From contig JALVCQ010000084.1 of NCBI GenBank assembly GCA_027009805.1, positions 1-33,142 of the forward strand: a DNA stretch of 33,142 bases. The letters run 5' to 3'. The position numbers were made by a program, and so were the translations under genes. The DNA is from Bacteroidota bacterium (GTDB lineage Bacteria; Bacteroidota; Bacteroidia; JAADEI01; JALVCQ01). The notes beneath the pieces are model-generated. The model was not told the DNA's origin and searched no databases. It worked only from the letters and a program-made list of their open reading frames with translations. This document shows, piece by piece, positions 11,835 to 17,373 of the stretch; the first letter of the stretch is position 1, and each line of letters opens with the position of its first letter.

Positions 11835-11844
11835 CGGTGAAACG

Positions 11845-11916
<72 letters not shown>

Positions 11917-12128: not shown

Positions 12129-13820
12129 ATGCGAAACTCCACAGTATCCCTCTGGATGGTGATGTTGCTTCTTGGCGTTTATCTGGCAGGTTGTAAGGGC
12201 GACTCTCAGCAGAAAGCGGCCGAACCGGAAACGGAAGAAGTCGGCTCAGAACCCGCGGTCACGTTGACCAGTGAAGAGATGGCCCGTGCCAAGCAGATTT
12301 ACTTTAATCTGTGTGCGGGATGTCATGGCGCTACCCGACGAGGTGCCACGGGACCTTCGTTGTTGCCCGACGGCGATGGCAAATTCCCCGCCACGAAAGA
12401 ACTGGGCACCGAGGCGCTGACTCATATCATCATGAACGGGCTTCCGGGGGGGATGCCCGACTGGGGAAAACAGGGCGTGTTGACGGAGGAAGAAGCCAAG
12501 CTGATGGCCAAATACCTTCAATTGCCGCCCCCCCCGATTCCGCAAATGACGATGGAAGATGTCCGCAAGTCATGGAAAGTTTACGTGCCCGTGGAAGCGC
12601 GTCCCACGCGTCCGGAAACGCAACGCAACTGGAAAAACTATATGGGCGTGATCTTGCGGGATGCGGGAAAAGTGGCCATCATAGATGGCGACACCAAAGA
12701 GCCTGTTGCTGTCCTCAATACCGGTTTCGCCGTCCATATCTTGCGTTCGTCCAGCTCCGGACGATATTTTTATTCTATTGGGCGGGATGGAAAAGTCACG
12801 CTTATCGATCTGTGGCCTGAAAAACCGCAGATTGTGGCTGAAGTAAAAACGGCTTTCGACGCCCGATCGGTCGAGGTGTCGAAATATAAAGGGCCGCAAG
12901 GTGATTTTCGAGACAAATACATCATTGCCGGCGGATATGTACCTTCTCATTTCGTGGTGTGTGATGCCATGACGTTGGAACCGCTTAAAATGGTGAGCAC
13001 GAAGGGAAAAGTGCTGGATACGGGTGAGTATCTCGAAGAGGCCCGGGTGGCCTCTATTGTGGCCTCCCACCACGATCCCCTCTGGGTGGTCAACGTCAAA
13101 GAGACCGGTATGGTGTGGCTGGTGGATTATTCCGACCTGGATAACATAGAGCAAAATATCACCAAAATCCCTACCGCCCGATTCCTTCATGACGGCGGAT
13201 GGGACCATTCGGGCAAATACTTCTTAGTGGCCGCGAATGCGGAAAACAAAATCGTGGTGATCGACGTGCCGAATAAAAAGCTGGAAAAAATCATTGAAGT
13301 GGGCACCAAGCCTCATCCCGGACGGGGCACCAATATTCAACATCCGAAATACGGCCATCTGTGGCTGACAGGCCATATTGGTGAGGGGCTGGTGGCCGCC
13401 ATTGCCACCGACCCCGGCCCTCATCAGTGGGAAGTAGTCGAGAATGTTCGCATGCCGGGCGTGGGCGGCGGCACCCTCTTTATCAAGTCCCACCCGAAAT
13501 CAAAACACGTGTGGGTGGACCGCCCCCTCAATACCAACGAGGACCTGCAACGCACGATTTACGTATATGATGCCGCCACCATGGAACTGAAGAAAACACT
13601 CAGGGTGCCGGATCGATACAAAGCTCGCGCCGTGCATCTGGAATACAACAAGAACGGTGACGAAGTGTGGGTGTCGGGGTGGGCTAAAAAAGACGACGAG
13701 TCGGTGTTGCTGGTGTTTGATGACAAAACATTGGAGCTGAAAAAGGAAATTACCGGAGACTGGCTGGTTACGCCGACCGGCAAATTCAATGTTTACAACA
13801 CGGCCCACGATATTTACTAA
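12129..13820 (+). CDS. nirS: Cytochrome cd1 nitrite reductase (NO-forming), lipoprotein
   Basis: Heme c motif CAGCHG and Met ligand GMPDWG. d1 proximal His in GFAVHILR, both catalytic His in FLHDGG and PHPGRG, C-terminal TPTGKFNVYNT. LAGC lipobox. Confidence 0.95.
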   Translation: MRNSTVSLWMVMLLLGVYLAGCKGDSQQKAAEPETEEVGSEPAVTLTSEEMARAKQIYFNLCAGCHGATRRGATGPSLLPDGDGKFPATKELGTEALTHIIMNGLPGGMPDWGKQGVLTEEEAKLMAKYLQLPPPPIPQMTMEDVRKSWKVYVPVEARPTRPETQRNWKNYMGVILRDAGKVAIIDGDTKEPVAVLNTGFAVHILRSSSSGRYFYSIGRDGKVTLIDLWPEKPQIVAEVKTAFDARSVEVSKYKGPQGDFRDKYIIAGGYVPSHFVVCDAMTLEPLKMVSTKGKVLDTGEYLEEARVASIVASHHDPLWVVNVKETGMVWLVDYSDLDNIEQNITKIPTARFLHDGGWDHSGKYFLVAANAENKIVVIDVPNKKLEKIIEVGTKPHPGRGTNIQHPKYGHLWLTGHIGEGLVAAIATDPGPHQWEVVENVRMPGVGGGTLFIKSHPKSKHVWVDRPLNTNEDLQRTIYVYDAATMELKKTLRVPDRYKARAVHLEYNKNGDEVWVSGWAKKDDESVLLVFDDKTLELKKEITGDWLVTPTGKFNVYNTAHDIY

Positions 13821-13859
13821 GGCAGGCCTTTACTCAGAGGTTTCCAAAGGGCTTGTGTC

Positions 13860-15839
13860 ATGAAATATGTAATTGTCATGCTGGCAATGGCTATTGGTGT
13901 GCTTTATGCGCAGCCGGTGGCCGATACGGTTCAGCTAAAAGACGCTGTGGTAACGGCCCAATCCGTACCCGCTGACCCTTCCCAGTCATTGTATCGGGTG
14001 GAAGTGGTTCCGGCCGCCATGTTTCAGAGAATCGGTGCCACTCATGCAGCCGAGGTGCTTTCCCATCTGTTGTTTGTCGATGTATCAGAGGCGACCACGC
14101 TGGGCGGCTCTGTATCGATGCAGGGGATTGACGGCCCTCGGATTAAAATAATGGTGGACGGCGTACCTGTGGTGGGGCGGTTGAAGGGGAACATTGATTT
14201 GCGCCATTTACCGCTTTCCGAGGTGGAACGGATAGAGGTCATCCGAGGGCCGGTGTCGGCGCATTACGGCACAGACGCGGTGGGAGGGGTGGTCAATATT
14301 ATTACCCGTCAAAATAGAAGGGCGGGACTTCGGGGACGGGCCTGGGGATTATATGAAAGTGTCAATGCTTTCAACGCCGGTTTAGCGGTGGGTTATGGCT
14401 TTGGAGCGCATGATGTGCAAATAAGCGGTTCGTTTCATGACTTTAAAGGGCTTTCCACCGATCCGGAGGTGGCGCGAAGTCTGAACTGGAATCCACGCAA
14501 CCAGTTGGGCGGACAAGTCACCTATCGTTATGCGCTTTCGAATGCGTTGGACGCGGGTTATACCGGCCGGTATTTTCAAGAAATGATGCAAGAGTTTGGG
14601 GAAGCAGATCCACATGGTCGGATTCGGGATAAGGACTATTACACCTCTCGTATGGACCATGTGTTGCGTGTCCAAGGAAATGTAGGGAAGGCTCATTATG
14701 TGGATGGATATGTAGCGCATCTGAGCTATCAGCGGTTTCATGATACCTGGAAGGTGGACCCGCAAACGGGGGATGTGACGCTGGATAGTCGGGATACGCG
14801 AGCAAAAAACAAAGTGAAATATACGCATGTGGGGAGCCGCACCCAGTTTGCCGGCCGAAGGAATGCACCGCTGCATTATGCCGTCGGCTATCAGACCGAG
14901 CATGAAACCACCGAGGGCGGCCGAATTGCCGATGGGAAGAAGCAGTATTGGACGGCGGCGGTGTTTGGAGGCGTGGATTATGCTTCCCTTCAGGGGTGGC
15001 GTGTTGCCCCTTCCATGCGACTGGTTTACAATACCGTTCACGGCCTGTTGGTAACGCCCTCTTTTCAGGCTTCCTATCGGTGGGCGCAGCGTCATCGGGT
15101 AATCGTCTCGTATGCGCGTGGATTCCGATCGCCTTCCCTTAAGGAACTTTATCTCGACTTCCGCATCAACGCCGGCCCCATTACTTATGTGATTGAAGGG
15201 AATAAAGACCTGAAGCCGGAGACGTCCGATCATTATGAGCTGCGGTATGAATATCGGGGGCCTATTAAGGGTGGCTTTGGGGGCTTATCGGTGGAAGGGT
15301 TTTATAACAACGTAACGGACCTCATCGCCCTGAGTCCCATGCAGAATTTCCATCGTCATTATATCAATGTGGAAAACTATCAGTCGGTCGGGGGGAATCT
15401 CATCGGTCATTATCAACGGGGCGACGCGCTAACCATCAAGGTGGGCGGCGGCATCCTGGGAAGATATAACAAGTTCTCGGAAAATGAAGAGGCGGAGCGC
15501 TTTCTGTTTTCGCCGGAGGCGGTGGTGGACGTCACGTATCGCCTCCCTGTGGTGCACGTCCTGGTGAGTGCTTCTTACAAATACAGCGGACCACGACCGG
15601 GATATGTGCTTAATGAGCAGGATGAGGTGGTGGAGGCGGTGGTTCGGGATGCTATCCATCGGATGGACGTGAGCATGAGCCGAAAATGGTGGAACGATCG
15701 GATTGAGGTGGTGTGCGGCATCAAAAATCTTTTTGATGTCCAAAACGTCGAGTCGTTTTCCGAGGTCGGGCAGGCACATGCGCGGGATATGGTGTTGTGG
15801 GGGCGGAGCTATTTCGTTCGAACAAGTTTTTCCTTTTAA
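13860..15839 (+). CDS. TonB-dependent receptor, HmuR/CirA/BtuB-like (tetrapyrrole or metal-chelate uptake)
   Basis: Signal peptide, DAVVTA TonB-box-like segment, plug motif VERIEVIRGPVSAHYGTDAVGGVVNIIT, FRSP and NKDLKPE (FRAP/NPNL-like) motifs, terminal Phe. Confidence 0.9.
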   Translation: MKYVIVMLAMAIGVLYAQPVADTVQLKDAVVTAQSVPADPSQSLYRVEVVPAAMFQRIGATHAAEVLSHLLFVDVSEATTLGGSVSMQGIDGPRIKIMVDGVPVVGRLKGNIDLRHLPLSEVERIEVIRGPVSAHYGTDAVGGVVNIITRQNRRAGLRGRAWGLYESVNAFNAGLAVGYGFGAHDVQISGSFHDFKGLSTDPEVARSLNWNPRNQLGGQVTYRYALSNALDAGYTGRYFQEMMQEFGEADPHGRIRDKDYYTSRMDHVLRVQGNVGKAHYVDGYVAHLSYQRFHDTWKVDPQTGDVTLDSRDTRAKNKVKYTHVGSRTQFAGRRNAPLHYAVGYQTEHETTEGGRIADGKKQYWTAAVFGGVDYASLQGWRVAPSMRLVYNTVHGLLVTPSFQASYRWAQRHRVIVSYARGFRSPSLKELYLDFRINAGPITYVIEGNKDLKPETSDHYELRYEYRGPIKGGFGGLSVEGFYNNVTDLIALSPMQNFHRHYINVENYQSVGGNLIGHYQRGDALTIKVGGGILGRYNKFSENEEAERFLFSPEAVVDVTYRLPVVHVLVSASYKYSGPRPGYVLNEQDEVVEAVVRDAIHRMDVSMSRKWWNDRIEVVCGIKNLFDVQNVESFSEVGQAHARDMVLWGRSYFVRTSFSF

Positions 15840-15851
15840 ATTGAATACATC

Positions 15852-17129
15852 ATGCGTTACCTATCTCATCTAATCGTCACGACAGCGTTATTGGCCGGCG
15901 TTACGTGGTGGGTGTCGGCCCAGGAGTTGACCCTTTCGGGGGCGTTTCGTCCGCGCTTTGAACACCGTTACGGCTACGGCCAATTGGCTTCGCCGTCTCA
16001 ATGGCCTGCGAATTGGGTGTCGCAACGGACGCGATTAATAGCGGATTATCGTTCGGATGCGGCCGACGCCCGCATCGTCTTACAAAACGTACGGGTGTGG
16101 GGTGATGTGTCCACATTGAGCCGTTCTGATCGGTTTATTGCCTTTCATGAAGCGTGGGCGCGGGTGCCCTTATGGAGGCGGCTGAGTCTGAAAGTGGGGC
16201 GACAAGAAATTGTGTATGACGATCATCGCATCTTTGGGAATGTGGGGTGGGCGCAACAAGCCCGCAGCCATGACGCGGCGGTGTTGACCTACCGCTCGGC
16301 CGACCGGAAAACCCGGCTGGATGTGGGGGGCGCTCTCAACGCCAACAAGGAAGAGAAGTTTCGGAGCTATTATCCAAACACGGCGGGATATAAGGACATG
16401 CAATATCTGTGGTTTCATCGGGATCTGAATAAAGTCGGCGTGAGTGTGTTGGCGTTGAATGTGGGGCGCGAATATCCGGGCACGGCCGCCGATACTTTTC
16501 GGATTGACAACATGCAAACGCTGGGGGGACGTGTGGTGTATAAAGACAAAGGCCTCAGCGGTGGGGTAGCAGCCTATTATCAGGGGGGGAGGCAGGCCGG
16601 TAATGCTGTGAAGGCGTTTTATTATGCCGGAGAGGTGAAATACACCAAAAACGGCGTCACGGTGGGCGCGGGGCGCGAGTTCCTTTCAGGGAAGGCCACC
16701 AACGATTCCGGATCGGTGGTGAAGTCTTTTGCCCCACTGTTCGGGACCAATCATAAGTTTAACGGTTGGATGGACTATTTCTACGTGGGCACCTGGATGA
16801 ACTCGGTGGGCCTGGAAGACATTTACGGGGTGTTGTCGGTCAAGAAAGGCAAGACCGCGGTTACCTTGATGCCGCATCTGTTTCGGGCGGCCGCCGATGT
16901 GTATGACGGCTCGCAAAAGTTGTCTCGGACGTTGGGCACCGAAATCGACCTGAGCGTCAAGTATAAGCTGACGCCTTCGGCGGCGCTGGTAGCGGGTTTT
17001 TCCACGATGATGGCCACGGAGACGATGGAGGTGATGAAAGGTGGGAGCAAGGATGAGTTTAATCGGTGGGGGTGGATGATGTTGGTCATTCGTCCGCGGT
17101 TGGGACATTGGCGGTTTGAGGGGCGCTGA
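15852..17129 (+). CDS. Alginate export (AlgE-like) family outer-membrane porin
   Basis: FRPRFEHR, SQRTRL, KVGRQEIVYDDHRIFGNVGWAQQARSHDA, FAPLFGTNHKFNGWMDYF, LGTEIDL motifs. Confidence 0.85.
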   Translation: MRYLSHLIVTTALLAGVTWWVSAQELTLSGAFRPRFEHRYGYGQLASPSQWPANWVSQRTRLIADYRSDAADARIVLQNVRVWGDVSTLSRSDRFIAFHEAWARVPLWRRLSLKVGRQEIVYDDHRIFGNVGWAQQARSHDAAVLTYRSADRKTRLDVGGALNANKEEKFRSYYPNTAGYKDMQYLWFHRDLNKVGVSVLALNVGREYPGTAADTFRIDNMQTLGGRVVYKDKGLSGGVAAYYQGGRQAGNAVKAFYYAGEVKYTKNGVTVGAGREFLSGKATNDSGSVVKSFAPLFGTNHKFNGWMDYFYVGTWMNSVGLEDIYGVLSVKKGKTAVTLMPHLFRAAADVYDGSQKLSRTLGTEIDLSVKYKLTPSAALVAGFSTMMATETMEVMKGGSKDEFNRWGWMMLVIRPRLGHWRFEGR

Positions 17130-17154
17130 GCGGCTTCCTTGTTTGGTATGGATA

Positions 17155-17373
17155 AACGGGCGGCGGCCCCGCGGGGCCGCCGCCCGTTGCTCGTTCGCGT
17201 GAGGGGCCCGAAGGGCGCCGAGGCGCAAGCCGAGGCGGACCGAAGCCGTCAGGCGAAGGGCCGAGGCGGGCAGCCGAGCCCGCAGGGGCCCGACCCGAAG
17301 GCGCCCGAAGGGTAGGGGTTGTAGGGGCGATGCATGCATCGCCCATGAAGGCGCCGAAGGGACACGCCCAAAG
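17155..17373. repeat. Composite palindromic intergenic element (BIME/REPIN/MITE-like)
   Basis: Perfect 34-bp palindrome at 17155-17188, then clustered mini-hairpins (GCCC-GAA-GGGC, CCC-GCA-GGG, GCC-GTCA-GGC) and a direct repeat GAAGGCGCC(C)GAAGGG. Confidence 0.65.
17321..17344 (+). repeat. GTAG-type REP sequence
   Basis: GTAG tetranucleotide foot directly followed by the perfect palindrome GGGCGATGCATGCATCGCCC. Confidence 0.7.

Follow-up and report, generated by a model that had tools for sequence, protein, structure and literature searches.

A nirS operon with a receptor and a porin

We analyzed a 33,142-nucleotide stretch of DNA (hereafter the window; contig JALVCQ010000084.1 of GenBank assembly GCA_027009805.1) from a Bacteroidota bacterium, and focused on three of its genes, which encode the cytochrome cd1 nitrite reductase NirS, a TonB-dependent transporter (TBDT) and a porin. 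These genes form one tight operon:

12129-13820, + strand: nirS, 563 aa; cytochrome cd1 nitrite reductase, predicted lipoprotein
13860-15839, + strand: TBDT, 659 aa; member of a nirS-linked lineage, candidate heme d1 importer
15852-17129, + strand: porin, 425 aa; AlgE-fold, 18-strand-type, candidate outer-membrane nitrite/nitrate channel

A preliminary description of this DNA had placed 39 bp between nirS and the TBDT gene and 12 bp between the TBDT and porin genes, and the coordinates of the open reading frames (ORFs) reproduce both gaps exactly. It had also proposed that the three genes may form a module for scavenging heme d1, the cofactor of NirS, or a precursor of it, from other denitrifiers. 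Fixed nitrogen is committed to gas loss by either of two enzymes, one of them NirS, and heme d1 is not known to serve any enzyme besides NirS.

The nitrite reductase looks functional and is a predicted lipoprotein

The window's NirS combines a Cytochrom_D1 domain (PF02239, the family of the eight-bladed d1 beta-propeller; 386 bits against a cut-off of 25.5) with a cytochrome c domain in Pfam, and it matches Pseudomonas aeruginosa NirS at 538 bits and about 50% identity. Using what we take to be the P. aeruginosa numbering of the heme c and d1 sites, the heme c ligands C62/C65/H66 and M109 align with C47/C50/H51 and M88. The proximal and the two distal histidines of heme d1, His182, His327 and His369, correspond to H203, H354 and H396, and the arginines of the d1 pocket (Arg156/185/198/225/372) to R177, R206, R219, R246 and R399. 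The intact NirS of the preliminary description was thus borne out, with the CxxCH motif, the Met ligand, the proximal His and both catalytic His all kept, and the protein looks fully functional. Across 45 NirS proteins compared, these twelve heme c and d1 positions were complete in 44, including all 11 receptor-linked proteins in the comparison; in the exception, L052, a split alignment segment leaves out four N-terminal positions. Judging by these residues, the receptor-linked NirS proteins still look d1-dependent.

The window's NirS begins with a lipoprotein-type signal peptide that ends in LAGC. A signal peptide ending in Cys and followed by a charged linker was present in 10/10 Bacteroidota NirS proteins examined (the window, L017, L018, L019, L021, L069, L070, L071, L167 and L168; the ends were LAGC, SYSC, TISC, LASC, MYSC, VTGC, LTAC and VIGC), which are therefore predicted lipoproteins. 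In Pseudomonas and Paracoccus, NirS is a soluble periplasmic protein.

The ten Bacteroidota proteins form one clade in the NirS tree (Shimodaira-Hasegawa-like approximate likelihood ratio test, SH-aLRT, 99), and group among themselves much as in the TBDT tree described below. Their closest relatives outside the phylum are encoded by a metagenome-assembled genome (MAG) of Planctomycetota, followed by Aquificota and two unclassified MAGs. All of these nearest genomes carry a NirJ-like gene, the Planctomycetota match being weak (111 bits).

The window genome encodes neither heme d1 nor tetrapyrrole synthesis

We searched the whole genome, window included, for cofactor synthesis. The assembly (G000) comprises 2.01 Mb in 232 contigs and is 100% complete and 1.86% contaminated by marker genes. 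Family searches recovered a single Cytochrom_D1 protein, and hence no NirF or NirN; the best NirJ score was 60 bits against a cut-off of 515, the best SUMT score was 30 bits against a cut-off of 185, and neither HemB nor a NirDLGH-type domain was found. Similarly, HemA, HemC and HemD were not found by tblastn at E ≤ 0.01. As controls, NirJ-like genes (E ≤ 1e-30) were recovered in 25/35 other nirS genomes, 13 of these genes exceeding the curated cut-off, and the NirDLGH domain was found in 3/3 positive controls.

The preliminary description had reported no d1 genes in the window and had pointed to the rest of the genome as the place to look for them. Both levels now agree: a scan of 20 large window ORFs, which did not include separate searches for nirC or nirM, found no such gene, and NirJ, NirF/NirN, NirDLGH and SUMT are all without a match genome-wide. 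The missing d1 branch therefore stands, and the gap is wider than described, since HemA, HemB, HemC and HemD are absent along with SUMT. The window organism is unable to make heme d1 or any tetrapyrrole, and by gene content the small-genome lineage that it forms with the same-genus genome G001 is a predicted tetrapyrrole auxotroph.

The organism nevertheless uses heme, as it encodes cytochrome c maturation genes and four COX1-family genes. One of the latter is NorB, which is 74% identical to the NorB of a Flavobacteriaceae nir-nor cluster (L018), and norB, norQ and norD are contiguous on another contig of the genome (C205). We also observed that both genomes of the genus lack HemB yet encode heme-copper oxidases.

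PMC8756737, which also names the taxa in its NirS trees, gives the canonical nir cluster of P. aeruginosa as nirSMCFDLGHJEN. The window's NirS is orthologous to the NirS of that cluster, with the catalytic and d1-binding residues conserved, and differs from it in being a predicted lipoprotein. In contrast to P. aeruginosa, the window genome has no nirF, nirDLGH, nirJ, nirE or nirN, and the TBDT and porin genes stand in their place.

Bacteroidota nirS genes pair with a receptor and lack the d1 pathway

NirS-grade matches occurred in 5/401 sampled genomes of the class and in 4/401 genomes of a phylum-wide sample, the window genome being included in both; nirS is rare in Bacteroidota. Together with three MAGs from a named genome collection, the two samples gave 11 Bacteroidota nirS genomes. 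NirJ was absent from 11/11, the best score outside the window genome being 51 bits. As these genomes include assemblies of only 2 (G445), 6 (G306) and 9 (G193) contigs, the pattern is not an assembly gap or a binning artefact. None of the 11 carries a second D1 protein of NirF/NirN grade: in G043 an additional match is weak (57 bits summed), and a 42-bit match in G494 and G497 is present also in G441, which has no nirS. The NirDLGH domain was likewise absent from 8/8 Bacteroidota nirS genomes tested.

In 10/10 Bacteroidota loci examined (the nirS context of G497 is not included), nirS is followed, on the same strand, by a homologous TBDT gene. We observed two layouts. In type A (the window, L018, L019, L070, L167 and L168), nirS is directly followed by a TBDT of about 660-675 aa. 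In type B (L017, L069, L071 and L021), the order is nirS, a protein of ~415 aa with a type IX secretion system (T9SS) sorting tail, a 740-aa TBDT, a HmuY-like protein and a cytochrome c. The order in L018 is norB - nirS - TBDT - porin - norQ - norD; nirS-TBDT-porin thus lies inside the nor genes there and apart from them in the window genome, and therefore behaves as a cassette. In a Cytophagales MAG (L021:8295-11668), a NirK-like gene with copper oxidase domains and a cytochrome c domain is divergent from the nirS-hemophore-TBDT-HmuY cluster, and this locus thus holds both kinds of nitrite reductase.

The patchy distribution could mean that the nirS cassette is a recent and non-functional passenger, with a NirS that stays apo and has no role. 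The gene is absent from the same-genus genome G001 as well as rare in the class, and a tRNA gene adjoins it in the window. We regard this explanation as very improbable. The three ORFs are intact and tightly packed, the genome retains NorB, NorQ and NorD, and NirS proteins from different Bacteroidota families are 56-72% identical with all 12 key residues kept. Moreover, the NirS and TBDT trees share the same groupings, which argues for long co-inheritance under selection.

Receptor linkage and NirJ across phyla

A convergent arrangement was found in Proteobacteria, where four nirS loci (L040, L046, L047 and L048) adjoin a TBDT of a different lineage; L047 belongs to the isolate Pseudomarimonas salicorniae CAU 1642. 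The three complete receptors of this group (L040, L047 and L048) score 294-359 bits against the heme/hemoglobin receptor families TIGR01785 and TIGR01786. NirJ is absent from all four genomes, and the NirDLGH domain from the three that were tested. In the locus from a Rhodoferax MAG (L040:5814-11402), the heme-type TBDT is divergent from nirS, and next after nirS comes a D1-domain protein of 444 aa that has no cytochrome c domain (NirF/NirN-like, 85 bits); neither NirJ nor NirDLGH was found in this genome.

Overall, across 39 loci and the further Bacteroidota genomes, NirJ occurred in 0/15 receptor-linked genomes (counting G497, whose nirS context was not examined) and in 25/32 nirS genomes without an adjacent receptor. 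Conversely, none of the 25 NirJ-positive loci had such a receptor in the flanks fetched. The nirS genomes are related to one another, and we give the linkage as counts, without a p-value.

These counts bear on the possibility that heme d1, or a substitute, is made by an unrecognised pathway, or that NirS uses another heme, the TBDT being unrelated to the cofactor. Most linked genomes can indeed make uroporphyrinogen-derived tetrapyrroles, as indicated by HemB and, in G036, by hemA-hemC and hemD genes that adjoin the nirS cluster. In addition, the seven receptor-less nirS genomes without NirJ (three Chloroflexota, two Chromatiales and two Magnetococcales MAGs) show that the absence of NirJ is not confined to receptor-linked loci. 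However, with neither HemA/B/C/D nor SUMT the window genome has no de novo route, the linked nirS clusters share no recurring gene that could be a biosynthetic candidate, and all d1-contacting residues are kept, the carboxylate-binding Arg included. We thus judge an unrecognised pathway to be improbable, though less so than an idle passenger. As a separate observation, the three Chloroflexota MAGs (L029, L030 and L031) carry nirS with neither a NirJ-like gene (E ≤ 1e-30) nor an adjacent TBDT; should these be genuine d1 auxotrophs, the cofactor would have to enter them by a different uptake route.

A receptor lineage derived from heme uptake, altered at its likely ligand site

The window's TBDT matches the Pfam plug (69 bits) and TonB barrel (86 bits) families, and its signal peptide is followed by the segment DAVVTA, which resembles what we take to be the TonB box consensus. 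It thus has the plug, barrel, signal peptide and TonB-box-like segment expected of a TonB-dependent transporter, in which the plug sits in a 22-strand barrel. Its best NCBIfam matches are both under the cut-off: 143.6 against 599.7 for TonB-B12 (the BtuB family TIGR01779) and 128.8 against 316.85 for TonB-hemin (TIGR01785); the score for TIGR01786 is 114.6 against 323.75. The structural model (predicted local distance difference test, pLDDT, 80.8) finds BtuB as its best fold match (E 3e-32; template modelling (TM) score 0.84 on the target). We rejected the fold as a guide to the ligand, as BtuB, Cir, PfeA, PhuR and ChuA match at similar scores.

To place the protein, we compared it with its homologues. 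In a 39-row tree, the eight nirS-linked TBDTs group as a single clade (SH-aLRT 97), split into type A (99) and type B (100) subclades, and the 28 best-scoring unlinked homologues all lie outside it. When two TBDTs of the second class were added (41 rows), the 28 unlinked proteins remained on one side of a branch (SH-aLRT 95). One genome, G036, holds both a generic (unlinked) and a nirS-linked copy. The generic sequence L088 stems from G219, a genome that is flagged as unpublished, and no conclusion rests on it. On this phylogenetic evidence, the nirS-linked TBDTs are a separate, derived lineage that split from an HmuY-type heme-uptake family. The preliminary description had proposed asking whether the TBDT clade co-occurs with nirS and avoids d1 synthesis genes. 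This was found for the derived lineage, which tracks nirS and does not co-occur with NirJ, and not for the wider family, whose members (E ≤ 1e-40) occur in 142/401 genomes of the class and are not tied to nirS.

Generic loci encode, in order, a T9SS-tailed HmuY-domain protein, a CbiX-like protein, a PepSY_TM-like protein, the TBDT and an HmuY-like protein. This order was read by Pfam on one of 20 loci (L106-L125), and most of the others agree by ORF size; in some, an FMN_bind/Fer4 protein takes the place of the PepSY_TM-like one. The layout points to heme capture and iron extraction, and the CbiX-type protein is a candidate dechelatase. The accessory proteins of type B nirS loci are orthologous to the generic hemophore and HmuY-like proteins (33-38% identity), and the CbiX-like and PepSY_TM-like genes are missing from nirS-linked clusters, so that what type B loci retain of the generic locus is confined to its surface and outer-membrane components. 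An HmuY partner adjoins the TBDT in L017, L069, L071 and L021, whereas tblastn found no HmuY-family hemophore or lipoprotein in the window or the rest of its genome.

The prototype of such loci is presumably the HmuR/HmuY system of Porphyromonas gingivalis. The nirS-linked TBDTs belong to the same family (28-35% identity), and the type B relatives keep both the T9SS-anchored HmuY-domain protein and the HmuY-like lipoprotein. They differ in forming a separate branch, in having lost the loop His and the CbiX-like and PepSY_TM-like genes, and in sharing an operon with nirS; the type A locus of the window differs further in having no HmuY partner at all.

The loop His lies in a motif of the generic family, F-V-D-I-N-H-N, between the boxes LKELY and GNxNLKxE, which are common to all members of the family, the window's protein included. 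Within this motif V, D, N and H were present in 28/28 generic sequences. In 10/10 linked TBDTs, the motif is replaced and 1-4 residues are inserted between the boxes: the His becomes Y or F in type A (Tyr in the window) and I in type B. The plug positions R74, D78 and L81, invariant in the generic family, also differ in the linked proteins. We take the replaced His to be at the heme-iron ligand site of HemR/ShuA-type receptors, whose hallmark (with PhuR) is presumably a conserved His between FRAP-like and NPNL-like boxes; this conserved His of heme and hemoglobin receptors is absent from the window's TBDT. What is probably the ligand site is altered in the linked lineage.

These results allow us to weigh a simpler account, in which the TBDT is an ordinary heme b or iron receptor that lies beside heme-rich denitrification genes, NirS obtaining its d1 by another route. 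The ancestry of the lineage in a family with HmuY-type hemophores fits this account, as does the lack of HemA/B/C/D in the window genome, where no other heme- or B12-like receptor was found among the 10 other TBDTs tested. Heme receptors are, moreover, often co-regulated with anaerobic metabolism. Yet HemB is present in 9/10 other linked genomes tested, so imported heme b is not needed there, and G001, a congener with no HemB and two heme-copper oxidases, has no nirS and no such TBDT (best match 29 bits). The receptor therefore tracks nirS and not heme auxotrophy. The loss in the linked lineage of the invariant loop His and of the CbiX and PepSY partners also speaks against an ordinary heme b receptor, which in addition would leave the d1 source of NirS unexplained in 15 genomes without NirJ. 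We consider it unlikely, although it is the strongest of the alternatives.

A proposed route for heme d1 from neighbours to NirS

From the operon, the missing pathway, the linkage of lineages and the conserved residues that we observe, we infer both the ligand of the receptor and its hand-over to NirS. The reading toward which we lean, with some reserve, is that the TBDT supplies periplasmic apo-NirS with imported heme d1. The receptor would pick up what d1-producing denitrifiers release, heme d1 or dihydro-heme d1, and move it across the outer membrane, powered via TonB, and the cofactor would then be loaded in the periplasm into membrane-tethered apo-NirS. In Pseudomonas, the last steps of d1 maturation and the insertion into NirS are periplasmic. 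Since insertion takes place on that side of the membrane in canonical systems, the proposed route would require no inner-membrane transporter. The arginine-lined porin would let nitrite in, NirS would make nitric oxide (NO), and the NorB, NorQ and NorD encoded elsewhere in the genome would remove it. With similar, modest confidence, we suggest that nirS-TBDT-porin is a self-contained periplasmic nitrite-reduction cassette in an organism unable to make tetrapyrroles. The import idea of the preliminary description is thereby supported for the receptor, given the absent pathway, a receptor lineage that tracks nirS and the count of 0/15 for NirJ, and is not supported for the porin, as detailed below.

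Several points weigh against this proposal. Being descended from a heme-uptake family, the TBDT may still transport heme b. The window genome has 13 Plug-bearing frames, and of the 11 TBDTs tested among them none but the nirS-linked one is of the tetrapyrrole type; this receptor could have a dual or general heme role and, with HemA/B/C/D and SUMT missing, could therefore also serve heme b there. In the 41-row tree, the proteobacterial outgroup joins among the linked TBDTs, with a warning of long-branch effects. The number of replaced columns was rejected as a sign of changed specificity, as the linked lineage has 12/132 and control long-branch lineages have 3 to 23; what is informative is which motif was replaced, not the raw count. 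The linked Bacteroidota loci are one evolutionary event, to which Proteobacteria add one or two, and of the 32 nirS genomes with no adjacent TBDT, seven lack NirJ too. Finally, free heme d1 has, to our knowledge, not been measured in nature.

Among known receptors, the cobalamin transporter BtuB of E. coli offers a functional parallel to the proposed import of a complete tetrapyrrole cofactor for direct use, and no other TBDT of solved structure aligns over the greater part of the window's protein (residues 30-490). The two are only ~20% identical, and BtuB hands its cargo to BtuF and BtuCD for the cytoplasm, whereas no inner-membrane partner is linked to the window's TBDT. The proteobacterial nirS-adjacent receptors match the families of PhuR, HasR, ShuA and ChuA, and they too are paired with nirS in genomes that lack NirJ; the window's TBDT shares little beyond the plug with them.

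A wider version of this proposal holds that heme d1 is a traded cofactor. A nirS guild in at least two phyla (Bacteroidota and Pseudomonadota) would have abandoned d1 synthesis entirely and would pirate the finished cofactor from true denitrifiers by means of dedicated, independently evolved TBDTs, with periplasmic loading onto membrane-tethered apo-NirS. We regard the chances of this as about even. Cofactor cross-feeding is already known for cobalamin. We found no description of heme d1 uptake or scavenging in the titles and abstract openings of the literature searched, a scope that did not extend to subscription journals.

If the proposal is true, denitrification would be a community trait that depends on cofactor cross-feeding, and the nitrite reduction of these organisms, with it a part of the environmental output of NO and nitrous oxide (N2O), would depend on neighbours. 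Surveys based on nirS would overcount autonomous denitrifiers, and marker-gene and MAG data on nirS would have to be read differently. Such dependence could also account for isolates that carry nirS yet fail to denitrify in pure culture, and heme d1 would be a new class of substrate for TonB-dependent transporters. The idea is directly testable, since a named isolate and near-complete genomes (2 and 6 contigs) carry the gene pair.

The porin is a candidate nitrite/nitrate channel

The third gene of the operon encodes a protein that scores 23.7 bits against Alginate_exp (PF13372), just under the cut-off of 25.2. Its AlphaFold model (pLDDT 79.6) finds AlgE, the alginate export porin of P. aeruginosa, as the best fold match (TM 0.64-0.70). 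The likeness to AlgE lies in the porin fold and in conserved basic residues that would suit anions in both proteins; the pore of AlgE is electropositive, and the window's family has many invariant Arg, among them R33, R35, R59, R61, R81, R117 and R126. Identity to AlgE is 13-14%, and the window's porin differs in having relatives linked to nirK, nirS and narK. An alginate porin is not indicated, given the score under the cut-off and neighbours that are nirS, the TBDT gene and mgtE rather than alginate genes.

Homologues of the porin occur in 96/401 genomes of the class, comprising 5/5 nirS genomes and 91/396 others. We examined 12 porin loci (L155-L166), namely eight of the best matches and the copies in four nirS genomes. 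Five of these have the order nirK - nirV-like - senC - porin, and the other seven lie in clusters with a narK-type major facilitator superfamily transporter, hemerythrin and moaA. Because the neighbourhoods are of the nirK or narK type in 12/12 loci, we read the protein as probably an outer-membrane nitrite/nitrate channel that would supply substrate, not cofactor. Accordingly, the inclusion of the porin in a d1 module by the preliminary description does not hold. The family provides a second lead, a candidate nitrite/nitrate channel of the Bacteroidota outer membrane.

Surroundings of the operon and support for the assembly

Two further features flank the operon:

11844-11916, - strand: tRNA-Met(CAT), found by ARAGORN; left bound of the module
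17155-17188, + strand: GC-rich hairpin with a 15-bp stem, 26 bp past the porin stop codon

The hairpin is the likely end of the operon. The sequence 17130-17210 folds at -49.5 kcal/mol (z = -3.2), and the hairpin has no T-run and is hence absent from our terminator-scan list. Neither terminator-like sites (6, against 7.1 expected) nor sigma-70-like sites (5, against 4.4 expected) are commoner in the window than in shuffled sequence.

The neighbouring genes are of the housekeeping type and encode an amino-acid permease, a PorV-like protein, MnmA, MgtE, KsgA, AsnB, iPGM and TopA. Eight flanking proteins match G001 at 50-79% amino-acid identity, and we rejected a mis-binned contig on this basis. 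The tRNA-Met gene may mark an insertion site: it has a 93% identical 100-nt match in G001, the remaining DNA being ~70% identical, and this match adjoins uvrA in a genome from which the nirS module is absent. A clean insertion site could not be defined in G001, which is fragmented and has a different gene order.

Independent metagenome runs supported the internal structure of the operon. Short contigs at 99-100% identity cover the nirS-TBDT-porin stretch, with one from run X5 spanning the nirS/TBDT junction and one from run X2 spanning the TBDT/porin junction. The contigs, from four other runs, are at most ~1 kb long and reach the internal junctions only, not the outer borders. The source runs that carry this DNA are labelled hydrothermal vent metagenome, which makes d1 producers plausible neighbours. 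Between the porin gene and mgtE lies a GC-rich repetitive spacer (17196-17372) in which other runs have spikes in depth, loose ends and joints skipping 38-95 nt; this spacer varies between populations.

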